Assembly: GCA_046754105.1 (NCBI GenBank)
Contig: JBHHVD010000001.1
Location: 42,733-106,732, forward strand
Direction: 5' to 3'
DNA from: Candidatus Krumholzibacteriia bacterium
GTDB taxonomy: Bacteria > Krumholzibacteriota > Krumholzibacteriia > WVZY01
Length of the DNA stretch: 64,000 bases
Shown here: positions 267-42,937 of the stretch, in pieces
Numbering within the stretch: position 1 is the stretch's first letter
How the letters are laid out: the number at the start of each line of letters is the position of its first letter
The notes under the pieces: model-generated
The model's input: only the letters and a program-made list of their open reading frames with translations
Databases searched by the model: none
What the model was told of the DNA's origin: nothing
Translations under genes and position numbers: made by a program

Positions 267-608
267 TTACTCCAGTTCGGGCATGAGACCGCGAACCTCA
301 TCCAGCTTTACGGTGAAGGCGATGCCCACGCCCGGCGCGCCCAGCGTGCCGCAAATCTCCTCGATCATGTCCAGCGATTCCTTGACCTTTTCCGGCTCTT
401 TTATCACGGAGAGAATCGTCTTGTTGTACGCGCTCGCCGCACTGAACAACGCCTGGAAGCCGGCGAAAATAGGCACTTCGCTGGCAAGCAGATGACCCAT
501 GCCCAGGCTGTCGATAATCGTCGAACCCGTTATACCGACTTCGAGATAGCCTTCGAGAACCTCTTCGAGCTTTTCGGGATTGTTGCATATGAAGACGAGA
601 AGGGTCAT
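267..608 (-). CDS. P-II (GlnB)-like small signalling protein
   Basis: 113 aa, MTLLVFICNNPEKLEEVLEGYLEVGITGSTIID..., consistent with a P-II-like fold. Immediately upstream of the transporter gene, as in SbtB-like pairings. The overlapping plus-strand ORF 168-731 is judged antisense. Confidence 0.5.
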   Translation of the reverse strand: MTLLVFICNNPEKLEEVLEGYLEVGITGSTIIDSLGMGHLLASEVPIFAGFQALFSAASAYNKTILSVIKEPEKVKESLDMIEEICGTLGAPGVGIAFTVKLDEVRGLMPELE

Positions 609-787
609 AAGGCAATGCCGTTTACAGCGTTAGGCCCCGACGATAGCTACCGGCGTGGCAGAAGTCAAGGCAAATGGACCCACGGTCGGCACCGGCGTGG
701 AGATCGGCGCCGCGCGTACGGGAAACTCTAGAAGGCGCCTCTTTTTCGTGCTATTTTAGTTTTTCTCGAATCAGCGAAAGGAAGAGA

Positions 788-3712
788 ATGAAACGCGTTA
801 TTCCGTTGATCCTGTGCGCGTCGCTTCTGTGGCCGGTGCGCGTCGCGTCGCAAGATTATTTTCAACAGTTTGTCCATTATACGATCAAGGTGCGCCTGGA
901 CACGCAGAACCACACGCTGACGGGGACGGAGTCCATCAACTACGTCAATAACTCGCCCGATACGCTCCGCCAGTTCTATCTTCATTTGTATCCCAACGCC
1001 TATCGCTCCAAAGAATCCGCGCTCATCAAGGACGTACGGCGCGGATTCAACGGCACCCTGTTCGACCTGCCCAATAAGCATCGGAGCCATCTCGGCGTCT
1101 CCGAAGTCACCATCGGCGGGCAACCCGTTGAGGTGGAAGTCGACGACACGATCGCCCGCATGGACCTGCCCGTCCCCCTTGCACCCGGACAGTCGATGGA
1201 AGTACGCCTTCGCTTTGAGGAGAAGATCCGGCGCCACGTGGGGCGCGCGGGATACAAGGGTAAGCACTATGATCTCGCACAGTGGTACCCCAAGGTCGTC
1301 GTCTACGACCAGAACGGTTTTCACCCGGACAAGTTCCGCGTGGGTGAATTTTACGGCGAGTTCGGCACTTTCGACGTCCACATCGAGGTACCGGCAAACT
1401 ACGTGATCGCGGCAACGGGCGTCGTCCGGGCCGGTGACCCCGGCTGGTCACTCAATCCCCCGGCCGGCGGGCGCGGCGCGGCGGGCGCAAACGACGCCGA
1501 TCCTGCAACCAAGACCGTCCATTTTCATGCAGAGGACGTGCACGACTTCGCCTGGAGTGCGGATCCGGACTTCGTCGTTCAGGACACGACCGTCGGCGAT
1601 GTCGAAATCCGCAGCTTCTATCGCAAACACAACAAGGCCTGGCGTGACAGCACGCTGGCACACGGCGTGAGGGCGATCGAATGGCTGTCGGAAAAGGTCG
1701 GGCTCTATCCCTACCCGCAGGTGAGCGTTGTCGACGCGCTGCTGCGGGGCGGCATGGAGTACCCCATGCTCGTGATGAACGGGAGGGTCAGCGAAGGGCT
1801 CGTCCTGCACGAGGTCGGGCATATCTATTTCTTCGGTATCTTCGGCAACGACGAGCGAGAGGAAGCGTGGCTCGACGAAGGATTCACGACGTTTCAGACC
1901 AGTTGGTACATGCAAGATCGTTACGGCCCCTACGGACCGACGCGTGAATGGAACTGGTACGATCGCCTCACGCCCCAGTTTACCGAACGGGGCCGGCTGC
2001 ACGATCGCGTCTTTCCGCTTCTCAGATTGGGCTACGGCGAACGTGTGTCAACGCGCGCGGAGGATTTCGAGCACGACTATTACACGATGGTCTATCGCAA
2101 GGCCGCGTTGATGTTTTTTGCGCTGCGCTACGTGGTCGGCGAGGAGACAATGGAGCGCATTCTCAAGAAGTACTTCGAGGAATGGAAGCTGAAGCACGTC
2201 AACGAGGAAAGATTTCGCAAGGTGTGCGAGGAGGTAAGCGGGCAGGATCTCGGGTGGTTTTTCGAAGAGTGGCTGCACACGAAGAAACTGTGCGACTACC
2301 GGCTGGCGGAAATGAAGTCGAGCGCCAGCGAGCGCGGCGACTCCTATACGACCCGCGTCAAGATCGAGAGGCTTGGAGAGATCATTATGCCGCTGGCGGT
2401 GGAGTTTACCTTCGCAGACGGCTCCACACAGACGGTGAGCGTTGACGGACGGCCCCGGACCATCAACAAGTCGTATAGTTTTCCGGAGAAAGCCGTCCGG
2501 GCGGCGATCAACCCCGCCAACGAAATAGCGGACATGAGCCCGTGGGACAACTTTGTGCCGCGGCGTCGGGCGCTGAGCGTCGACTGGCCGAACAACCATT
2601 ACTACCGGGAGGATGCTTACCAGATCCGCTATCGCCCCGCGGGCTGGTACAACGACATCGACGGGGGCAAGGCGGGCCTGCACCTGAGCGGCAGTTACGC
2701 GAACTGGTTCCGGCGGCTGAAGCTCGGGCTCTACTGGGGATTCAAGAGCGAGCGGCTCGATTTCTCGGCATCTTACCTGAAGCCGGTTCGGATCCTGGGC
2801 GCAAACGGCGGGCTCGGGTTGTCCGGATACAAGATGGAGGGGCGTAACGATTTCACGTTCCGCATGAACCTGAGGAAACGAAAGCAGCTGATCCACCCAC
2901 CCACGAAGGAGTTCGTGTTCGGGGTGAATTATCACGAGCTCACCAACACGCGATTCGTTTCCAACCCGGAAACCTACGAGAAGGGATCCGAGGTCGCCCC
3001 GTTTTTTGGACTCTCACTGGACCCGCAGTACGACGTGATGAGCACGAAATTCAACGTGGGGGTCAGATTCGGGCGGGAATGGTTCGGCGGCGATTTCAAG
3101 TACACTGCGCTGACCGCCTCCGCGGTGTTCAAGACCCGGACGTCGATCGTGCCGTTCGACGGCCGGCTGCGGTTGTTCGCCGGCAGCGTCAGCGGCAGCG
3201 TGCCGTTCCAGGAGAAACTTTCCCTGGCAGGGGGCGGCCCCCTGGCCGAGGAAAGGCGGTTTTTCCTGCGCAGCCCGGGCGCTATCTGGGACGAAGCGAA
3301 CTATCACGAGCCGGGCCACGGCAACCTCCGGGGCTACCGCGAGGGCACATTCGGAGTCAACAAGCTGGTGGCGCTGAACCTCGAGGTGGGACGCTCGCTT
3401 CCCCTTCTATCCGGCGCGGCCGACAAGCTGCTCGGCGCCGTCAAAGCGTACGCGTTTCTGGACATGGGCGCCACGGCGGACAGCGACAACCCTATCCTCA
3501 GCAGCCAGCGCGTGCAGGTGCTGGTGGACGGCGGCCTCCTGGACGAAGCGCTGGTGGACGCCGGGATCGGCTTTACTTTCCACAGAGTTTTTCCGTTTTA
3601 CGACGCTTTTGTGCGCTTCGACATTCCCTTTTACGTGAACAACCCGCAGCTCAACGGCGAGAGCAAAGAGACCGAGTACCGGTACGTGCTGAGTCTGACA
3701 TCGACGTTCTGA
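788..3712 (+). CDS. Secreted M1-family zinc metallopeptidase fused to a C-terminal Omp85/BamA-like outer-membrane beta-barrel
   Basis: Internal Met at 788 is preceded by the RBS gaaaggaag and opens a signal peptide, MKRVIPLILCASLLWPVRVASQ. M1 motifs are present: GGMEYPM (GxMEN-like), HEVGH, and WLDEGF 19 residues later. The last ~400 aa show alternating hydrophobic beta-strand patterns, an LRGY motif resembling Omp85 loop-6 (V/I)RG(F/Y), and a terminal ...LSLTSTF-COOH. Confidence 0.8.
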   Translation: MKRVIPLILCASLLWPVRVASQDYFQQFVHYTIKVRLDTQNHTLTGTESINYVNNSPDTLRQFYLHLYPNAYRSKESALIKDVRRGFNGTLFDLPNKHRSHLGVSEVTIGGQPVEVEVDDTIARMDLPVPLAPGQSMEVRLRFEEKIRRHVGRAGYKGKHYDLAQWYPKVVVYDQNGFHPDKFRVGEFYGEFGTFDVHIEVPANYVIAATGVVRAGDPGWSLNPPAGGRGAAGANDADPATKTVHFHAEDVHDFAWSADPDFVVQDTTVGDVEIRSFYRKHNKAWRDSTLAHGVRAIEWLSEKVGLYPYPQVSVVDALLRGGMEYPMLVMNGRVSEGLVLHEVGHIYFFGIFGNDEREEAWLDEGFTTFQTSWYMQDRYGPYGPTREWNWYDRLTPQFTERGRLHDRVFPLLRLGYGERVSTRAEDFEHDYYTMVYRKAALMFFALRYVVGEETMERILKKYFEEWKLKHVNEERFRKVCEEVSGQDLGWFFEEWLHTKKLCDYRLAEMKSSASERGDSYTTRVKIERLGEIIMPLAVEFTFADGSTQTVSVDGRPRTINKSYSFPEKAVRAAINPANEIADMSPWDNFVPRRRALSVDWPNNHYYREDAYQIRYRPAGWYNDIDGGKAGLHLSGSYANWFRRLKLGLYWGFKSERLDFSASYLKPVRILGANGGLGLSGYKMEGRNDFTFRMNLRKRKQLIHPPTKEFVFGVNYHELTNTRFVSNPETYEKGSEVAPFFGLSLDPQYDVMSTKFNVGVRFGREWFGGDFKYTALTASAVFKTRTSIVPFDGRLRLFAGSVSGSVPFQEKLSLAGGGPLAEERRFFLRSPGAIWDEANYHEPGHGNLRGYREGTFGVNKLVALNLEVGRSLPLLSGAADKLLGAVKAYAFLDMGATADSDNPILSSQRVQVLVDGGLLDEALVDAGIGFTFHRVFPFYDAFVRFDIPFYVNNPQLNGESKETEYRYVLSLTSTF

Positions 3713-3716
3713 GCAC

Positions 3717-4817
3717 CTACGCGAGGATTTCCTTGACCGAGGACGTCACGGCGTCAACCATCTCGTCGGTTAACTCGGGATACATCGGCAGTGAGAGGAT
3801 TTCATCGGAGGCTTGTTCCGCCACCGGAAAGTCGCCGCGCTCGAGTCCGAGGTGTTTGTAGGCCTCCTGAAGGTGGAGCGGCAACGGGTAGTGAATCCCG
3901 CACGCGATGTGCCGCACTTCCAGTTGCGTCAACAGTTTTTCCCTCTCCGGGGTCCGAACCACGTACAAATGGTAGACGTGACGGCAGTCCGGCGCTTCCC
4001 GTACCGGGCGGACCGGACCCTCGGCAAACGCTTCGTCGTACCGCTTCGCGCGGCTCCGCCGCAACTCGGTCCATTCGTCGAGGTGCCGCAGCTTGACGTC
4101 GAGGATTGCCGCCTGCAACGTGTCGAGACGATAGTTGAACCCTTCGCTGCGGTGGTTGTACTTGCCGTCGCGGCCGTGGTCGATGAGCATTCTCACGCGC
4201 GCCGCGAGCGTCTCGTCATCGGTTACCACCATACCGGCGTCACCGTAGGCCCCAAGATTCTTGCCCGGATAGAAGCTGTAGCACGAAACCTTGCCGTGGA
4301 TCCCCCGGCGGCTTCCCTTGAATTCCGCGCCGTGTGCCTGGGCCGCGTCCGAGACAATCGTGATTCCGTGCCGGTCGGCAACGGCGTGCAGCGCCTCCAT
4401 GTCCGCGCTCTGCCCGTAGAGATGAACGGGAATAATGGCCCGGGTGCGCGGCGTGATCGCCTCCTCCACTTTTTGCGGATCGATGTTCAGCGTGTCCGGC
4501 AGGACGTCGACCAGCACCGGCGCAGCCCCACTGTGACTAATGGCGGCTGTTGTCGCGATAAACGTGTTGCAGGCCGTAATCACCTCGTCTCCGCGCCCGA
4601 TGCCGAGCGCCTCCAGCGCTACGTGCAGCGCGGTCGTGCCGCTGCTCGTCCCTACCCCGAAGCCCGCTCCCACGTAGTGCGCGAAAGCGCTCTCGAACTC
4701 CTGGAGTTTCTCGCCGCCAACGAACCGCGTCGTTTCGAGGATCCTGCCTATCGCGGGGTCAATCTCGCCCCGGATGCTCTCGTACTGTGCCTTCAAGTCG
4801 ACAAAGGGAATCTTCAT
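3717..4817 (-). CDS. DegT/DnrJ/EryC1/StrS-family PLP-dependent sugar aminotransferase (ArnB-like)
   Basis: MKIPFVDLKAQYESIRGEID... has the typical N-terminus. The lysine-region SFYPGKNLGAYGDAG is present. 366 aa. Confidence 0.9.
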   Translation of the reverse strand: MKIPFVDLKAQYESIRGEIDPAIGRILETTRFVGGEKLQEFESAFAHYVGAGFGVGTSSGTTALHVALEALGIGRGDEVITACNTFIATTAAISHSGAAPVLVDVLPDTLNIDPQKVEEAITPRTRAIIPVHLYGQSADMEALHAVADRHGITIVSDAAQAHGAEFKGSRRGIHGKVSCYSFYPGKNLGAYGDAGMVVTDDETLAARVRMLIDHGRDGKYNHRSEGFNYRLDTLQAAILDVKLRHLDEWTELRRSRAKRYDEAFAEGPVRPVREAPDCRHVYHLYVVRTPEREKLLTQLEVRHIACGIHYPLPLHLQEAYKHLGLERGDFPVAEQASDEILSLPMYPELTDEMVDAVTSSVKEILA

Positions 4818-6205: not shown

Positions 6206-7698
6206 TGGCACATGGTCGGCGCGATTTCCTTCAGAGATCCCCCCTCGATCAGGTTGCCGTCGTACCGCTCATCGACCAGAATGCAGGGTACCGGGTTGGT
6301 GGTGTGCGCCGTGTGCGGCCCGCCCGTCTCGGGGTCGATCATCAACTCCGCGTTGCCGTGGTCCGCGGTCACGATCGCGGCGTCCCGCCCGGGGTCCAGC
6401 GCTTCGATCACCCGCCCGACACAGGTATCCACCGTCTCCACCGCCTCGATCGCCGCTTCGAGCACTCCGGTGTGGCCGACCATGTCGGGATTGGCGAAGT
6501 TACATACAACGTAGTCGTGGCGATTCTCCCCCAGTGTCTGGATCAGGGCCTCGGTGACCCCGAGGGCGCTCATGGCCGGTTGCAGGTCGTACGTCGCCAC
6601 GCTGGGAGACGGCACCAGGATCCGGTCCTCACCCTCGAACGGCTCTTCAACACCCCCGTTGAAGAAATAGGTGACGTGCGCGTATTTTTCCGTCTCAGCC
6701 AGACGGAATCCCGTGCGGCCCGCCGCCGCCGCCACCGCGCCGAGGATGTTTTTCATTCCGGCGCGTGGGAACGCGACGGGCAGTTTGAAGCGCTTATCGT
6801 AGGCGGTCATACAGACGAAATCGACCTCAGGCCTGGCCTCGCGCGTGAACCCGGTGAAGCCGGCCTCGGTGAAGGCCGCCGTCAATTGCCGTGCGCGGTC
6901 GGCGCGAAAGTTGAAGAAGATGATCGAGTCGCCGTCGCGAACGGTGCCAACCGGTTTGCCCTTGCCGTCGGTTACGACTATGGGCTCGACGAATTCATCG
7001 GTGACGTCCCTGTCGTAGGATTCCCGCAACGCCCCCTGGTAGTCGGTGACGCGCCGACCCCGGCCGGCGGTAAGCGCGTCGTAGCCTTTCTGGACCCGGT
7101 CCCAGCGTTTGTCCCGGTCCATGCAGTAGTAGCGCCCGCACACCGTCGCCACCCGGCCGAGTCGTGCCGCATCGAGTTCGTCCTGCAAATCGGAGAGATA
7201 CCGCGTTCCGGCGGTCGGCGAGGTGTCACGGCCATCGAGAAACGCGTGTACGCAAACGTCTCGTACGCCTCGGCGGCGGGCCATCTCCAGGAGCGCGTAG
7301 AGATGCTCCCGGGTGCTGTGTACGCCGCCGGTCGACAACAGGCCCATCAAGTGCAGGGTGCCGCGGTCCCCGACCGCGTCGCAGGCGCCGGTCAGCGCGC
7401 CGTTCTCGAAGAACTCACCGCTCTCGATCGCCCTGGATATCCGCATGATGTCCTGGTAAACCACGCGGCCGGCGCCGAGGTTGAGGTGGCCGACCTCGCT
7501 GTTTCCCATCTGGCCCGCGGGCAGACCTACTTCGGTACCCGACGGATCCAGCGTCGTGTGCGGATACCGATTCCACAGGCCGTCGACGATCGGTGTTGCG
7601 GCCTGCGCCACGGCGTTCGCTTGCCCGTCGGCCCTGAGGCCCCATCCGTCCATGATCAGTAGCACGATTCGTCGCTTCACTCTTTCCACCTTCTTCAC
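6145..7698 (-). CDS. gpmI: 2,3-bisphosphoglycerate-independent phosphoglycerate mutase
   Basis: LLIMDGWGLR...NSEVGHLNLGAGRVVYQD...ADHGNAE are canonical iPGM motifs. 517 aa. Confidence 0.95.
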   Translation of the reverse strand: MKKVERVKRRIVLLIMDGWGLRADGQANAVAQAATPIVDGLWNRYPHTTLDPSGTEVGLPAGQMGNSEVGHLNLGAGRVVYQDIMRISRAIESGEFFENGALTGACDAVGDRGTLHLMGLLSTGGVHSTREHLYALLEMARRRGVRDVCVHAFLDGRDTSPTAGTRYLSDLQDELDAARLGRVATVCGRYYCMDRDKRWDRVQKGYDALTAGRGRRVTDYQGALRESYDRDVTDEFVEPIVVTDGKGKPVGTVRDGDSIIFFNFRADRARQLTAAFTEAGFTGFTREARPEVDFVCMTAYDKRFKLPVAFPRAGMKNILGAVAAAAGRTGFRLAETEKYAHVTYFFNGGVEEPFEGEDRILVPSPSVATYDLQPAMSALGVTEALIQTLGENRHDYVVCNFANPDMVGHTGVLEAAIEAVETVDTCVGRVIEALDPGRDAAIVTADHGNAELMIDPETGGPHTAHTTNPVPCILVDERYDGNLIEGGSLKEIAPTMCHYMGVDVPPEITGRDLREDC

Positions 7699-9992
7699 TA
7701 CGGCTCGTTCCTCTCGAGATCGGCGCGCACGCGCTCGAGATTCACCTGGGCGTTCCGGTTCGAGGGGTCTATTTCAAGGGCCTTCACGAACTCCTTCTCG
7801 GCCCGCTCGAATTCGCCCATGTTTGCATATACCGACCCGAGGGTGATGTGCCCGTTGGAGTAGTTCGGCTCGACACGTACGGCGCGGGCTCCGTACCGGT
7901 GCGCGGCATCGAGCTCGCCGAGCTGGAGGAACATGATCGCCAGGTTGTTCATGGCGAAGACGTTCTCCGGGTTCAACTCGATCGCCCTCTCGAAGGCCTG
8001 CCTGGCGAGATCGTACTGCTTCAGTTTACCGTAGCACACGCCGAGGTTGTTGAGCGCCGCCGGAAAGTCGGGCCTGAGGGAGAGCGCCTTGTTGAATTCT
8101 TCAACGGCCTTGCGGTACTCGCCCTTCTCCTGGTATCGCTGGCCGAGGTTGTTGTGGGCGTCCGGGTTGCCGCTGCCGGTGCGCTCGGGCGTAATATAGG
8201 CCAGGGCCTCTAGCTTCTTCATCACCTGTTCGGCTGCCTCGTCGTCCGCCTCGAAAGACTCTGCGTCATTCGTGCGCGTCCGCTGCAAGGTGGCGAGCCG
8301 CGTCGTGTTCAGCCGTTCGACCAGCGGCTCCTCCAGGGCCTCCGACAGCACCTTGCCGGGCATGTCGGCGGGCACCGGCAGCCCCTGCAGTCCCAGCACC
8401 GTCGGGGTGACGTCGAGGACCGATGCGTTTTCTATGCGTCGTCCGGGGCGTATGCCGTTTCCGTACAGGCAGATGATCCCGTCCAGCTTGTGCCAGAACG
8501 CGGCCTTTCCCGCCCATATCTCCGGACGCAGTCGCGGCCGCAGGGCGCCGCTCTTGAAACCGTGATCCGACGCCACGATCACTACGGTGCGGTCGTCGCA
8601 TTTCTCCAGTAGCTCTCCGATGATGCGATCCTGTAGCACGTAGGCCTCGGCGACCGCGTTCTTGAACTTCCGGTAGGCGGTGTCGTCCGTGTCGGGCAAC
8701 CTCGGCGGGGCATAATGCATGAAGAGATGCTTGGTCGCGTCCACGAGTTCGAAATAAACGGCCAGAAAATCCGGCTGCTCGGGGCCGAGCAGCTCCATGG
8801 CGATCCGGTGGTAACTCAGGGTCGAGGCGTAGAGCATGATCATACTGTTGATCGGGTTCTTGGGATCGAACGCGGAGGCCCGGTTTTTCAGGAAAGTGTC
8901 GCGGTCGATGTCGATGAACGGTTTGAATTCATCGTAGGTTACAGACTCGCTCGGCAAGACCAATTCCGATATCTCGGCCAGCCGCTCCGCGGGCGATACG
9001 CTCCCCGGCAATACCGCGGAGTCATCCGCGGCGTCTGCATAGGCCAGGTAGCCGACACGATCCGTTACCATGGTGCCGTTGATCGCTTCTGCGGGAAACG
9101 TTGCCAGCCAGCCGACAATACTCACCCTGCGTCCGGCGTCGCTCAGCATGTTCCAGAATGCGTCGACCCTTCGCGCCCGGCGGCTGATCGGCACTTTCTT
9201 GCCCGTCTTCGGATCGACGACGGTAAAGTTGAGTACGCCGTGGTCCTCCGGGAGCTTGCCCGTGGCCACGGTCGTCCAAATCAGGGGCGAGAGAAGCGGT
9301 TCGATGGATCGCAGCGGGCCGCTGGTGCCGCCTTCCACGATCTTGCGGAAATTCGGCAGCCGGTCTCCGGCCATCATCGCTCGCAGGATGTCCCAGTCCG
9401 CACCGTCGACACCGACGAAGAGCACCTTGCGCAGCGGCTCGGGCTCGACAGCGACGACGGGTGCTTCCCCACCCGACCTCCATCCCTCGAGCCGGTACTC
9501 GGCGACCTCGAGGCCCGCGGGGGTAAGCGCCTTTATCACCTCGCCGATCACCGCCTTGTCGTAGCCGGCCGGCATGGCGCCGCCCGTCACCAGCGGCCAG
9601 CGCGCGGTCTCTATTTCAACCGTCTCCCGAACGATCCTGGAAAGCCCTGCGTAGAATTCATCGCCGACCAGCGGCTGGATCAGGGCCCCCGCCCGGTCGG
9701 GTACCCGCATGCGGAGGCCGAGGGCCAGATGCGCCTTGCCACCCTCCTTGCCCAGCAGAGAGTACACCCCCTCGTCGGGAAAACGGTATTCGACCTCCCC
9801 GGCGGGGTAGAGCAACCAGCGGGCCGAGAACGGCGGTACGAAGTGAAGGCCCCGCCCGTACGACGTCGCCTCGCCGTCGTCTCCGATGCGGACCGCCTGG
9901 TACCCCTGCGGCACGCGCCGGACGACCAGGGCCGATACCAGGCCCACGACGGCCGCGGCGAGGGCGAGCGCTATGATCGCGCGTTGTTTCAT
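7698..9992 (-). CDS. Alkaline-phosphatase superfamily (type I phosphodiesterase/nucleotide pyrophosphatase-like) protein with a C-terminal TPR array; N-terminal signal anchor
   Basis: VLFVGVDGADWDIL and VVIVASDHGFKSG are AlkP-core motifs. The C-terminus carries five or more TPR repeats (NNLGQRYQEKGEYRKAVEEFNKAL...). Start placed at the internal Met MKQRAIIALALAAAVV (signal anchor); the track ORF extends to 10130. Confidence 0.75.
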   Translation of the reverse strand: MKQRAIIALALAAAVVGLVSALVVRRVPQGYQAVRIGDDGEATSYGRGLHFVPPFSARWLLYPAGEVEYRFPDEGVYSLLGKEGGKAHLALGLRMRVPDRAGALIQPLVGDEFYAGLSRIVRETVEIETARWPLVTGGAMPAGYDKAVIGEVIKALTPAGLEVAEYRLEGWRSGGEAPVVAVEPEPLRKVLFVGVDGADWDILRAMMAGDRLPNFRKIVEGGTSGPLRSIEPLLSPLIWTTVATGKLPEDHGVLNFTVVDPKTGKKVPISRRARRVDAFWNMLSDAGRRVSIVGWLATFPAEAINGTMVTDRVGYLAYADAADDSAVLPGSVSPAERLAEISELVLPSESVTYDEFKPFIDIDRDTFLKNRASAFDPKNPINSMIMLYASTLSYHRIAMELLGPEQPDFLAVYFELVDATKHLFMHYAPPRLPDTDDTAYRKFKNAVAEAYVLQDRIIGELLEKCDDRTVVIVASDHGFKSGALRPRLRPEIWAGKAAFWHKLDGIICLYGNGIRPGRRIENASVLDVTPTVLGLQGLPVPADMPGKVLSEALEEPLVERLNTTRLATLQRTRTNDAESFEADDEAAEQVMKKLEALAYITPERTGSGNPDAHNNLGQRYQEKGEYRKAVEEFNKALSLRPDFPAALNNLGVCYGKLKQYDLARQAFERAIELNPENVFAMNNLAIMFLQLGELDAAHRYGARAVRVEPNYSNGHITLGSVYANMGEFERAEKEFVKALEIDPSNRNAQVNLERVRADLERNEP

Positions 9993-10058
9993 GATGGCAT
10001 GATAATACGCGATTGCCCGGGGTAGATGTGAGAACAATCCAATCAAGCGGCGTCGCTT

Positions 10059-11033
10059 TTGCGCTGGCGAGAACTCGCGAACACGGTTATAATGAGCTTT
10101 TTTCGCGCCCCACCTCCACCACGATCGCAAACGAACGTGCCGTCACCGGATACATCTGCCAGGAAAGTCGCTGTCGTCGTCCTGACGTGGAACGGCAGAT
10201 CGCTGACGCTCGACTGCCTGGAATCGCTCGCGGCCTTGACATGGGGCAATCTGGAAACCGTGGTAGTGGACAACCACTCGACCGATGGTACCGCGGAAGC
10301 GATAAAAAGTTCCTGCGGCGAGACCGTCTCGGTGCTCGTTAACCCGGAAAACCTTGGATTTTCCGGTGGAAACAACGTCGGGATACGGTACGCGCTCGAC
10401 CGCGGCGCCGACTGGGTTCTTCTTCTCAACAACGATACCATCGTCGACCCCGGGCTCGTGGATCGTCTGGTTGAGGCGGCGGCCTGCGCTCCGGATGTCG
10501 GCGTCGTCGGCCCAAAGATCTATTATTCACACCCTCCCGATCGCATATGGTCCGCCGGCGGCGAGATTTTTCTCTCGCGGGGCACCGCCCGCCACATCGG
10601 CATACGCCGGCGCGACACGGGCGAGTACGACACGCCGCGCGACGTGGATTATGTCAGCGGATGCGCTCTGATGGCGAGCCGCGACGTGTTCGAAACCATC
10701 GGTCTTCTCGACTCCTCCTACGTCCTCTACTTCGAAGACGCGGATTTTTGCACGCGGGCGAGGATGCACGGCTTTCGCGTGAGGTATGCGCCGGGCGCCG
10801 TAGTATGGCACCGGATATCCTCGGCGACCGGCGGACAATTCGGCCGCCGGAAGGTCGCGCTCAAACTGCGGAGTGCGGTCAAGTTCTTTCGCCGGTACGC
10901 ATCCCCGCACCACTGGCTTACCATTCCTTTGTTTTTTACAATCGACGTCATCCGTATTATCATCCTCGTCCTTGCCGGACGCATTCACAACACCACCGAG
11001 CGGGACGGAACGTCCCACGGGAGCAGGCCATGA
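10059..11033 (+). CDS. Family-2 glycosyltransferase (rhamnosyltransferase-like)
   Basis: VAVVVLTWNGRSL...VVVDNHSTDGT...NLGFSGGNNVG...LLNNDTIV is a GT2-A fold. C-terminal TM segment. The start may instead be Met at 10092. Overlaps rmlD by 4 nt (ATGA). Confidence 0.85.
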   Translation: MRWRELANTVIMSFFRAPPPPRSQTNVPSPDTSARKVAVVVLTWNGRSLTLDCLESLAALTWGNLETVVVDNHSTDGTAEAIKSSCGETVSVLVNPENLGFSGGNNVGIRYALDRGADWVLLLNNDTIVDPGLVDRLVEAAACAPDVGVVGPKIYYSHPPDRIWSAGGEIFLSRGTARHIGIRRRDTGEYDTPRDVDYVSGCALMASRDVFETIGLLDSSYVLYFEDADFCTRARMHGFRVRYAPGAVVWHRISSATGGQFGRRKVALKLRSAVKFFRRYASPHHWLTIPLFFTIDVIRIIILVLAGRIHNTTERDGTSHGSRP

Positions 11034-41877: not shown

Positions 41878-42937
41878 TCGCCTGGAGACAACCGGCGGCG
41901 TGGACGGCGCCACCGACAAGAGTGCGGGCCTGGCCGGCATCCTTTGGCAGAGGCTCCGGCGCGACCGGTTCGCCATGACCGGTCTCTATATCGTTCTCTT
42001 GCTTTGCGCCGTCTCCTACCTGGCACCCACCCTGGCGAACGACAAGCCGTTGATAATGAGATACGAGGGGCGACTCTATTTCCCCGCGGTGGCGGAGCTG
42101 TTTCCGCTGAACAAGATCCTCCGCTACCCGGAATTGAGAGGTGTTGATTACGACAATTTGCGCGACGACCCGGCGATCGCTATCCTGAACCCCCCCGTGC
42201 CCTACTCGCCCTACGAAACCTCGCTCTCGGAACGATTCCAGGCGCCGAGCCGCCGGCACTGGATGGGCACCGACGATCTGGGCCGTGACGTGTCCAGCCG
42301 CATGATCCACGGCGCTTCCGTCTCACTGCTGGTGGGCTTTGTAGCGGTAGGGATCGCGCTCTTCATCGGCCTGCTCGCCGGCGCCCTGGCCGGGTTTTAC
42401 GGCGGCATGGTAGACATCGTCGTTTCGAGAATAATTGAAGTCGTGATGTGTTTCCCGTCGTTCTTCCTCATCCTGGCGGTTATCGCGTTTCTGCCGCCGA
42501 GCATTTACAACATCATGGTGGTTATCGGAATCACTCGCTGGACGGCGATTGCTCGTTATACGAGGGGGGAGTTTCTACGCCTCAAGAAACAGGACTTCGC
42601 GTACGCGGCGAGGGCACTGGGGGCCAGCGATCGCAAGATCATCTTTCGTCACATCCTGCCCAACTCGCTGGCGCCGATACTCGTATCGGCCACGTTCGGC
42701 ATAGCGAACGCGATCCTGATAGAAGCGGCGTTGAGCTTTCTGGGCTTTGGCGTACAACCCCCGGCGGCGAGTTGGGGAGGCATTCTATCGCTGGCCCGCG
42801 AGTACATCGAAGTGGCGTGGTGGCTGGCTACGATCCCCGGTCTCGCGATCTTTGTCACGGTAACGGGCTACAACATTCTCGGCGAGGGGTTGCGGGACGC
42901 GAGCGACCCCCGTCAGACGCTCACCGAGAGCCGCTAG
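41870..42937 (+). CDS. ABC peptide transporter permease (DppC/OppC-like)
   Basis: BPD_transp_1-type permease with an N-terminal OppC-like extension. Overlaps the upstream permease by 8 nt. Confidence 0.9.
   Translation: MSDRLETTGGVDGATDKSAGLAGILWQRLRRDRFAMTGLYIVLLLCAVSYLAPTLANDKPLIMRYEGRLYFPAVAELFPLNKILRYPELRGVDYDNLRDDPAIAILNPPVPYSPYETSLSERFQAPSRRHWMGTDDLGRDVSSRMIHGASVSLLVGFVAVGIALFIGLLAGALAGFYGGMVDIVVSRIIEVVMCFPSFFLILAVIAFLPPSIYNIMVVIGITRWTAIARYTRGEFLRLKKQDFAYAARALGASDRKIIFRHILPNSLAPILVSATFGIANAILIEAALSFLGFGVQPPAASWGGILSLAREYIEVAWWLATIPGLAIFVTVTGYNILGEGLRDASDPRQTLTESR

Follow-up and report, generated by a model that had tools for sequence, protein, structure and literature searches.

The gene and its product

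We analysed a 64,000-nucleotide stretch of DNA (positions 42,733 to 106,732 of contig JBHHVD010000001.1; hereafter the window, in whose numbering all coordinates are given) from a Candidatus Krumholzibacteriia bacterium. Near the beginning of the window lies a gene (788..3712, forward strand) that encodes, on a single polypeptide, an M1 zinc-peptidase module followed by a predicted 16-strand outer-membrane beta-barrel of the Omp85 type. All features of this gene described below lie on the forward strand. The enclosing open reading frame (ORF) spans 674..3712; the ATG at position 788 yields a precursor of 974 amino acids (aa) closed by a TGA stop, and both the start and stop codons were verified. 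Judging from the sequence, ATG 788 is the biologically sensible start, as (i) the purine-rich GAAAGGAAGAGA is found immediately 5' of it, and (ii) the product matches P0001, a protein at NCBI, over its entire length (100% identity, 100% coverage). P0001, which derives from a Candidatus Krumholzibacteriia metagenome bin, is named by NCBI only "M1 family aminopeptidase". An earlier interpretation made from the letters of this stretch (the sequence-only reading) had described a single secreted protein of 975 aa; the protein is one residue shorter, and its secretion agrees with the putative signal peptide at the N-terminus.

The first 21 residues (MKRVIPLILCASLLWPVRVAS; 788..850) look like a signal peptide of the signal peptidase I (SPase-I) type, as read from the sequence, and contain no lipobox. 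Equivalent N-termini, which end right before a conserved YFQQ, were found in the relatives, and the region received low predicted local distance difference test (pLDDT) scores in the full-length structural model described below. Lipoprotein anchoring was also considered and ruled out, since LILC has Leu at position -1 and is not a lipobox.

The M1 peptidase module

Residues 22-576 (~555 residues) constitute the M1 module. In the I-IV nomenclature of M1 domains (PMC10343166), they comprise the N-terminal beta domain, domain I (residues 22-285; 851..1642), the catalytic, thermolysin-like domain II (residues 286-500; 1643..2287) and a six-strand all-beta domain resembling domain III (residues 501-576; 2288..2515). 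The Pfam profile Peptidase_M1 covers residues 336-495 with 54.8 bits, against a cut-off of 27.7. HEVGH (residues 341-345) and WLDEGF (residues 361-366) together form the canonical HExxH-x18-E zinc site of the family (residues 341-364; 1808..1879), the coordinates of which were verified. Among 45 relatives of the window protein, from which all conservation counts in this text are taken, H341, E342 and H345 are invariant, and E364 is retained in 44. Tyr436 (2093..2095), which corresponds to the tyrosine stabilising the transition state in M1 enzymes and lines up with the Tyr in 'ITYAKGA' of an alanine aminopeptidase of solved structure, is also found in all 45.

The stretch GGMEYPM (residues 321-327; 1748..1768) is a variant of the 'GxMEN' exopeptidase motif of M1 enzymes. 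In these enzymes, the Glu of the motif binds the free N-terminus of the substrate (PMC10343166). This residue, Glu324, is kept in the window protein and in 45/45 relatives, as are G322 and P326, while M323 and Y325 are found in 44/45; the Asn of GxMEN is thus replaced by Tyr in all relatives except one. The three motifs named by the sequence-only reading as a complete M1 gluzincin active site (GGMEYPM, HEVGH and WLDEGF) were all verified, with catalytic residues that are invariant or nearly so, and by its sequence the N-terminal part is a complete M1 gluzincin module. In profile and fold the module matches M1 domains I and II, and domain I of the model is a beta domain of the M1 kind. The module is predicted to act as an aminopeptidase, that is, as an exopeptidase.

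The all-beta domain of residues 501-576 contains six strands and no helix in either of the structural models. It fits a counterpart of the M1 linker domain III, because ~100 extra residues of the window protein align to four-domain M1 enzymes as compared to the two-domain enzyme 6a8z or LTA4H. Ordinary M1 enzymes have a helical domain IV, which is missing here, and the barrel occupies its place in the sequence.

The C-terminal Omp85-type barrel

The barrel covers residues 611-974 (2618..3709). Two AlphaFold2 (AF2) runs, one with the C-terminus alone (pLDDT 77.7) and the other with the full-length protein and 45 family sequences (mean pLDDT 90.5; predicted template modelling score, pTM, 0.87), each generated 16 long antiparallel strands with a loop of 54 residues between strands 11 and 12, which is the position of loop 6 in Omp85 proteins. 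The 50 top matches in a Foldseek search were exclusively BamA, TamA and Sam50, with a lowest E-value of 1.5e-10. The best structural matches of the barrel were all Omp85 proteins (TamA, BamA, Sam50 and FhaC), and CdiB was also among the matches. A soluble ERAP1-like beta-sandwich or an M1 domain IV was considered for the C-terminus and rejected, given the 16 long antiparallel strands in combination with the Omp85 proteins as the top structural matches.

The signatures of Omp85 proteins are found at the corresponding places. Loop 6 (residues 805-858; 3200..3361, position from the model) contains LRGY (residues 847-850; 3326-3337), which matches (V/L/I/M)RG(F/Y/W), and strand 13 contains FLDMG (residues 890-894; 3455..3469), which matches FxDxG. 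In Omp85 proteins, the Arg of the loop-6 motif (L/M)RG(W/Y) pairs with the Asp of FxDxG in strand 13 and forms the 'lid-lock' (PMC11358297). R848 and G849 of the loop-6 motif, as well as F890 and D892 of FLDMG, are invariant in the 45 relatives, and Y850 and G894 are each found in 44. Loop 6 is the best-conserved part of the barrel (62.5% identity). The protein ends with strand 16 and a beta-signal, YRYVLSLTSTF (3677..3709), the terminal Phe of which is shared by 42/45 relatives; R965 in the same segment is invariant. Strand 16 is short in the model (residues 966-970).

At the other end of the barrel, the hairpin of strands 1 and 2, 'RPxxWYNDVDGxKxG' (residues 611-631; 2618-2680), shows the sharpest conservation in the barrel outside loop 6, with P617, Y621, N622, D625 and G630 present in 45/45 relatives, and it is retained in the stand-alone barrels mentioned below.

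Support by profile searches came from the relatives. The Pfam profile for Omp85 (PF01103) scored above its cut-off in 18 of the 45 (best E-value 4.2e-10). Seven relatives that were checked individually gave 26-40 bits (cut-off 24) over profile positions ~140-320 of 325, and the equivalent stretch of the window protein lies around LRGY. The sequence-only reading had proposed this search as a check on a 16-strand Omp85-like barrel with LRGY and an end in ...LSLTSTF: the answer is positive for 18 of the 45 relatives and negative for the copy in the window, which is weighed below. Two outcomes named there as speaking against such a barrel, a soluble beta-sandwich and a lack of any Omp85 profile match, were thus examined, and the models, the fold searches restricted in their top matches to Omp85 proteins and the verified motifs uphold the assignment. 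We therefore regard the C-terminal module as a predicted 16-strand Omp85-type barrel, on which the profile matches of the relatives, the models, the fold searches and the signature motifs converge. Strand amphipathicity was also tried as a membrane test and did not discriminate, as the strands of the soluble controls alternate no less than those of the barrel (mean difference 2.42 for the barrel vs 2.58 for M1 domain I and 2.88 for the small beta domain).

The region between the two modules

The all-beta domain is connected to strand 1 of the barrel by a linker of 34 residues (residues 577-610; 2516..2617), conserved as NEIxD...DNFxPRR...DWPNNxYY. Its mean identity is 55%, and N578, I580, D582 and N588 are invariant in the relatives. 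In the full-length model the linker adopts one short strand and one helix of four residues, and it contains no helix of pore-spanning length.

Profiles for POTRA domains gave no match in the window protein, in its isolated C-terminus (E <= 10) or in any of the 45 relatives. From the catalytic domain to strand 1 the model contains the six-strand all-beta domain and the linker, which do not show the beta-alpha-alpha-beta-beta fold of POTRA domains. The view of the sequence-only reading that no POTRA domain is recognisable between the two parts consequently holds. The POTRA domain is also missing from the recognised 'noNterm', 'Metallo' and 'WD40-like' subfamilies of Omp85 proteins (PMC4104836; PMC11358297).

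Topology and the proposed mechanism

The long connections of the modelled barrel, L4, L6, L7 and L8 (14, 54, 25 and 15 residues), are all at odd-to-even strand junctions, as in BamA, and the even-to-odd turns are mostly of 2-8 residues, with one of 13. In Omp85 barrels such as BamA and TamA, strand 1 starts at the periplasmic rim, and L4, L6 and L7 cap the extracellular mouth (PMC11358297). The long loops of the window protein lie on the face opposite to the N-terminus of strand 1, so that the M1 module is predicted on the periplasmic side. The module most likely sits in the periplasm, anchored to the outer membrane on its inner side, rather than being displayed on the cell surface.

We thus favour the reading that the protein is an outer-membrane-anchored, periplasm-facing M1 aminopeptidase that trims imported oligopeptides, to which we would give a probability of roughly 60%. 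The precursor would take the Sec route and lose its signal peptide of 21 residues. Its last 364 residues would be inserted in the outer membrane, presumably by BAM via the beta-signal with its C-terminal Phe, and form the 16-strand Omp85-type barrel with the lid-lock of loop-6 LRGY and strand-13 FxDxG. The N-terminal ~555 residues would fold as M1 domain I (beta), domain II (catalytic) and a III-like beta-sandwich, with the barrel standing where the helical domain IV sits in ordinary M1 enzymes. The peptidase would be kept on the periplasmic side, close against the outer membrane, like the patatin domain of PlpD, and would most likely trim N-terminal residues off oligopeptides that crossed the outer membrane. 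The protein would thereby process peptides for the nutrition of a heterotroph that degrades proteins.

The sequence-only reading had assigned the protein to a layout like that of the type Vd autotransporters, with the peptidase as passenger. The proteins PlpD and FplA are indeed similar to the window protein in that an N-terminal hydrolase is fused to a C-terminal 16-strand Omp85-type barrel on one polypeptide with a Sec signal, and in that the enzyme domain is probably periplasmic. They differ by carrying a patatin lipase and one POTRA domain; in the window protein, an M1 zinc peptidase stands in place of the lipase, and a small all-beta domain with the 34-residue linker in place of the POTRA domain. 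No Pfam match to the patatin domain (PF01734) was found in the window protein, the N-terminal module of which is M1. As the two defining features, patatin and POTRA, are absent, the window protein is not to be filed as type Vd. Moreover, protease accessibility, disulfide mapping and lipidomics placed the enzyme domain of PlpD, formerly called a type Vd autotransporter, in the periplasm (PMC11116518), and the loop pattern described above points to a periplasmic M1 module as well. The passenger interpretation is accordingly not supported.

If the barrel nevertheless translocated its own M1 module, the protein would be a self-exporting surface aminopeptidase, a POTRA-less relative of type Vd that digests extracellular peptides. 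Protein-translocating Omp85 relatives, FhaC and CdiB, are among the structural matches, and a peptidase on the surface would suit a protein-degrading heterotroph. Classical type Va autotransporters consist of a 12-strand barrel and a pore-spanning helix. One of them, AaaA, reportedly has a surface-exposed passenger of the M28 peptidase family. AaaA resembles the window protein in having an aminopeptidase anchored in the outer membrane through a C-terminal barrel, and it demonstrates that a type Va autotransporter can carry a surface aminopeptidase (PMC3426542); the barrel of the window protein differs in being of the 16-strand, Omp85 type. For fusions of enzymes to Omp85 barrels, Heinz and Lithgow regarded export to the surface as a possibility (PMC4104836). 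Nevertheless, the paradigm PlpD keeps its enzyme domain in the periplasm, neither the POTRA nor the patatin domain is present, and the linker in the model has no helix to span a pore. The passenger would be a three-domain globular zinc enzyme of ~555 residues, not a vectorially folding beta-helix, and the lid-lock of LRGY and FxDxG, which closes barrels of the BamA and TamA type to the outside, is present. Export to the surface is, in our view, quite improbable.

The barrel might alternatively conduct oligopeptides from the outside straight to an active site docked under its periplasmic mouth, and thereby replace domain IV, which caps this site in M1 enzymes. Such a channel-enzyme agrees with the position of the barrel in the sequence, as domain IV forms one wall of the M1 substrate chamber; with the pTM of 0.87, which indicates a fixed arrangement of the two halves; and with the strong conservation of the linker, including several invariant residues. 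It is at odds with the way in which L4, L6 and L7 seal barrels of the BamA and TamA type on the outside, given that the lid-lock is conserved here, and with the stand-alone barrels of the same subfamily that exist without an enzyme. We consider a peptide-conducting barrel highly doubtful. Taken more broadly, the idea that the barrel and the peptidase work as one machine, either for self-export as a new subclass of type V or as a gated peptide conduit feeding a docked active site, is unlikely. If this were the case, the protein would represent an Omp85 barrel with a task beyond protein insertion or two-partner secretion, and, if the conduit were genuine, the barrel would have assumed the role of M1 domain IV in the substrate chamber.

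Distribution and diversity of the family

More than 100 full-length relatives (~975 aa, 43-80% identity) that keep both halves were found in the protein database. Those named by taxon come from Krumholzibacteria or Latescibacteria bins, and the few labelled ones in NCBI and JGI bear the names "M1 family aminopeptidase/metallopeptidase", "aminopeptidase N" or "hypothetical protein". Thirty-nine loci were recovered when a single genome of each species was scanned. More distant copies, with 22-32% identity, occur in Zixibacteria, Ignavibacteriota, Cytophagia, Sphingobacteriales, a bin labelled "Deferribacteres" and Gemmatimonadetes. The fusion is thus present in at least six phylum-level groups, which include Latescibacterota, Bacteroidota and Gemmatimonadota. 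All six complete distant copies are fusions of 1000-1094 aa with HExxH and (L/V)RGY; the last residue is Phe in four of them and Ile or Leu in the other two. The copy of Ignavibacteriota passes both Pfam cut-offs, PF01103 with 36.5 bits.

The barrel alone was used as query of an exhaustive phmmer search against 1.84 billion representatives, which yielded only 148 clusters (50% identity). Of these, 45 are full-length fusions of M1 and barrel with the zinc motif intact, and 10 are shorter proteins, probably fragments, in which the zinc motif is present. Eighteen clusters are candidates for barrel-only proteins (340-450 aa), 17 are proteins of 450-850 aa without a zinc motif, and 49 are fragments shorter than 340 aa. 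The remaining nine are long M1-like proteins with the barrel that have lost HExxH and GxME and usually the catalytic Tyr as well. The proteins of 450-850 aa might be taken for a third architecture, but at least six of these 17 are gene calls truncated at the N-terminus that start within the M1 domain, and for them this reading was rejected.

The fusion is not a chance product, given the Pfam score of the peptidase, the more than 100 relatives carrying both halves, and signature residues that are invariant or nearly so in 45 relatives. The conservation across the family, with over 100 relatives, 45 intact clusters and at least six phylum-level groups, may be counted as selection on the fusion.

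The barrel also occurs by itself. Stand-alone barrels of ~400 aa without a peptidase were found in four of the barrel-only candidates (P0242, P0243, P0245 and P0206) and, in Balneolaceae, at L042:2340-3557. In these proteins the conserved first hairpin, 'RPxxWYNDVDG', comes immediately after a signal peptide. Pfam recognised nothing in L042, P0242 or P0243.

The nine clusters that lack the zinc site (P0158, P0167, P0180, P0193, P0219, P0228, P0229, P0233 and P0241; 913-1007 aa) look like catalytically dead 'pseudo-peptidase' paralogues, judged by the motifs that they lack in the alignment. They bear on another possible function of the family, in which the protein is a factor for quality control or assembly in the envelope. 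The barrel would engage nascent or misfolded outer-membrane proteins (OMPs) at the seam of strands 1 and 16, and the tethered M1 module would bind or degrade the OMPs, functionally like BepA docked at BAM. Dead paralogues suggest binding or scaffolding that is independent of hydrolysis, and the BamA-like lid-lock, the short strand 16 (residues 966-970) and the conserved WYNDVDG hairpin of strands 1 and 2 are features in keeping with such a seam. BepA itself is a periplasmic zinc peptidase acting at BAM (PMC8423444), and Heinz and Lithgow proposed a role in periplasmic quality control for the 'Metallo' class of Omp85 proteins (PMC4104836). Nevertheless, M1 enzymes with the Glu of GxME are exopeptidases acting on free N-termini, not endoproteases suited to stalled barrels, the fusion has no POTRA domain for substrate reception, and genes for BAM, TAM and chaperones are not conserved adjacent to it. 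A role in quality control appears rather unlikely.

Several observations weigh against the periplasm-facing, peptide-trimming enzyme that we prefer. First, the Pfam Omp85 profile (PF01103) gave no match on the window protein or on its C-terminus alone, even at E <= 10. Searches of PDB chains, by phmmer with the C-terminus and by hmmsearch with a family profile of 22 sequences, found nothing of significance, with AvtR as the only match (E = 0.43), and the family profile recovered no solved Omp85 protein by sequence. Second, the orientation of the M1 module is deduced from Omp85 topology rules and the analogy to PlpD, not from the model coordinates. Third, the exopeptidase motif is a variant, GGMEY instead of GxMEN. 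Fourth, because nine clusters have lost the zinc site yet keep the barrel, the M1 module may also serve in a non-catalytic manner (binding or scaffolding), which is not explained by the trimming of peptides. Lastly, all family members derive from metagenome bins.

Relation to known Omp85 proteins and M1 enzymes

A survey of Omp85 proteins published in 2014 distinguished ten bacterial subfamilies, including patatin-like (PlpD), "Metallo" (PF00149), "WD40-like" and "noNterm" (PMC4104836). Neither "peptidase" nor "aminopeptidase" is used in the main text of the survey, and its supplementary tables never mention PF01433 (PMC4104836). The window family is not in the dataset of that survey.

The 'WD40-like' subfamily is similar to the window family in combining an Omp85 barrel without POTRA with N-terminal Phyre2 matches to M1 aminopeptidases, and it is found in Bacteroidota and relatives. 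We take the structures matched, 1z5h, 4kxd, 4fgm and 3qnf, to be M1 enzymes (factor F3, aminopeptidase A, an aminopeptidase-N family protein and ERAP1, respectively). They are listed in Table S3 of the survey as ~99% Phyre2 "best aminopeptidase hits" for WD40-like members (PMC4104836), and the class was later summarised as having "divergent WD40 and peptidase domains" (PMC11358297). The subfamily is defined by TolB-like PD40 propeller repeats (PF07676), while profile searches found no PD40/WD40 repeats in the window protein, the 45 relatives or the nine longest barrel relatives; the window family is therefore without a propeller by this measure. The window family has in addition a canonical, catalytically intact PF01433 domain.

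The 'Metallo' (PF00149) and 'noNterm' classes resemble the window family in being Omp85 barrels without POTRA, to which a metallo-hydrolase may or may not be fused (PMC4104836), and stand-alone barrels like those of 'noNterm' also occur in the window's own barrel subfamily. The differences are that PF00149 stands for calcineurin-like phosphoesterases instead of M1 peptidases, and that 'noNterm' proteins carry no enzyme. The soluble M1 enzymes (tricorn-interacting factor F3, ERAP1, PepN and the two-domain M1dr, 6a8z) have no membrane barrel; in the window protein the barrel follows the III-like domain, and GxMEN reads GGMEY.

The sequence-only reading knew of no precedent for an M1 peptidase on such a barrel. 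This stands in so far as no description of an M1-Omp85 fusion was found among the papers listed by our literature searches; however, enzyme-Omp85 classes are known, among them the WD40-like class with its M1 Phyre2 matches, and an M1-like module on an Omp85 barrel is not wholly unprecedented. What the window adds to the known enzyme-Omp85 fusions, by its sequence, is a variant with a POTRA-less barrel and a catalytically intact M1 module.

Genomic context

The M1-barrel gene is monocistronic in the window. It is flanked by a small P-II-like gene in divergent and a DegT-family aminotransferase gene in convergent orientation. The former (267-608, reverse strand) encodes a protein of 113 aa with a marginal P-II match (PF00543, 28.6 bits; cut-off 25). 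The TGA of the peptidase gene, ending at 3712, is separated by 4 nt from the TAG of the aminotransferase gene (3717-3719, reverse strand), and there is no intergenic space for a terminator hairpin between the two stops. Further downstream, an 810-aa protein (7698-10130, reverse strand) contains a type I phosphodiesterase / nucleotide pyrophosphatase domain and, at its C-terminus, an array of TPR repeats; its syntenic counterpart in one relative has an additional Band_7 match. Neither tRNA genes nor Rfam families at the gathering threshold were found across the whole 64 kb (1-64000).

The gene neighbourhood is collinear among close relatives only. In the neighbourhoods compared across relatives no conserved partner gene was found, and those for BAM, TAM and chaperones are not conserved nearby, which fits a self-contained protein. 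In the locus of one Latescibacteria relative, P0013, an ORF of 359 aa without a Pfam match (L001:4925-6004) overlaps the beginning of the M1-barrel gene by 4 nt, which suggests co-transcription of the two. No counterpart of this ORF is found upstream in the window.

Implications

Omp85 barrels are best known as insertases (BamA, TamA and Sam50) and translocases (FhaC, CdiB and Toc75). To our knowledge, fusions of enzymes to them are few, and PlpD is the sole one studied. A conserved M1-Omp85 fusion across several phyla of the FCB group would be a second, unrelated class of enzyme on the Omp85 scaffold. The family also reveals a gap in annotation, as an outer-membrane component is at present read as an ordinary M1 peptidase. 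The family allows a test of whether these barrels are mere anchors for periplasmic enzymes or have a role in transport, for which the dead paralogues and the stand-alone barrels of the same subfamily are natural controls that separate the roles of the two halves. If the barrel has a transport role, the significance of the family would grow substantially.

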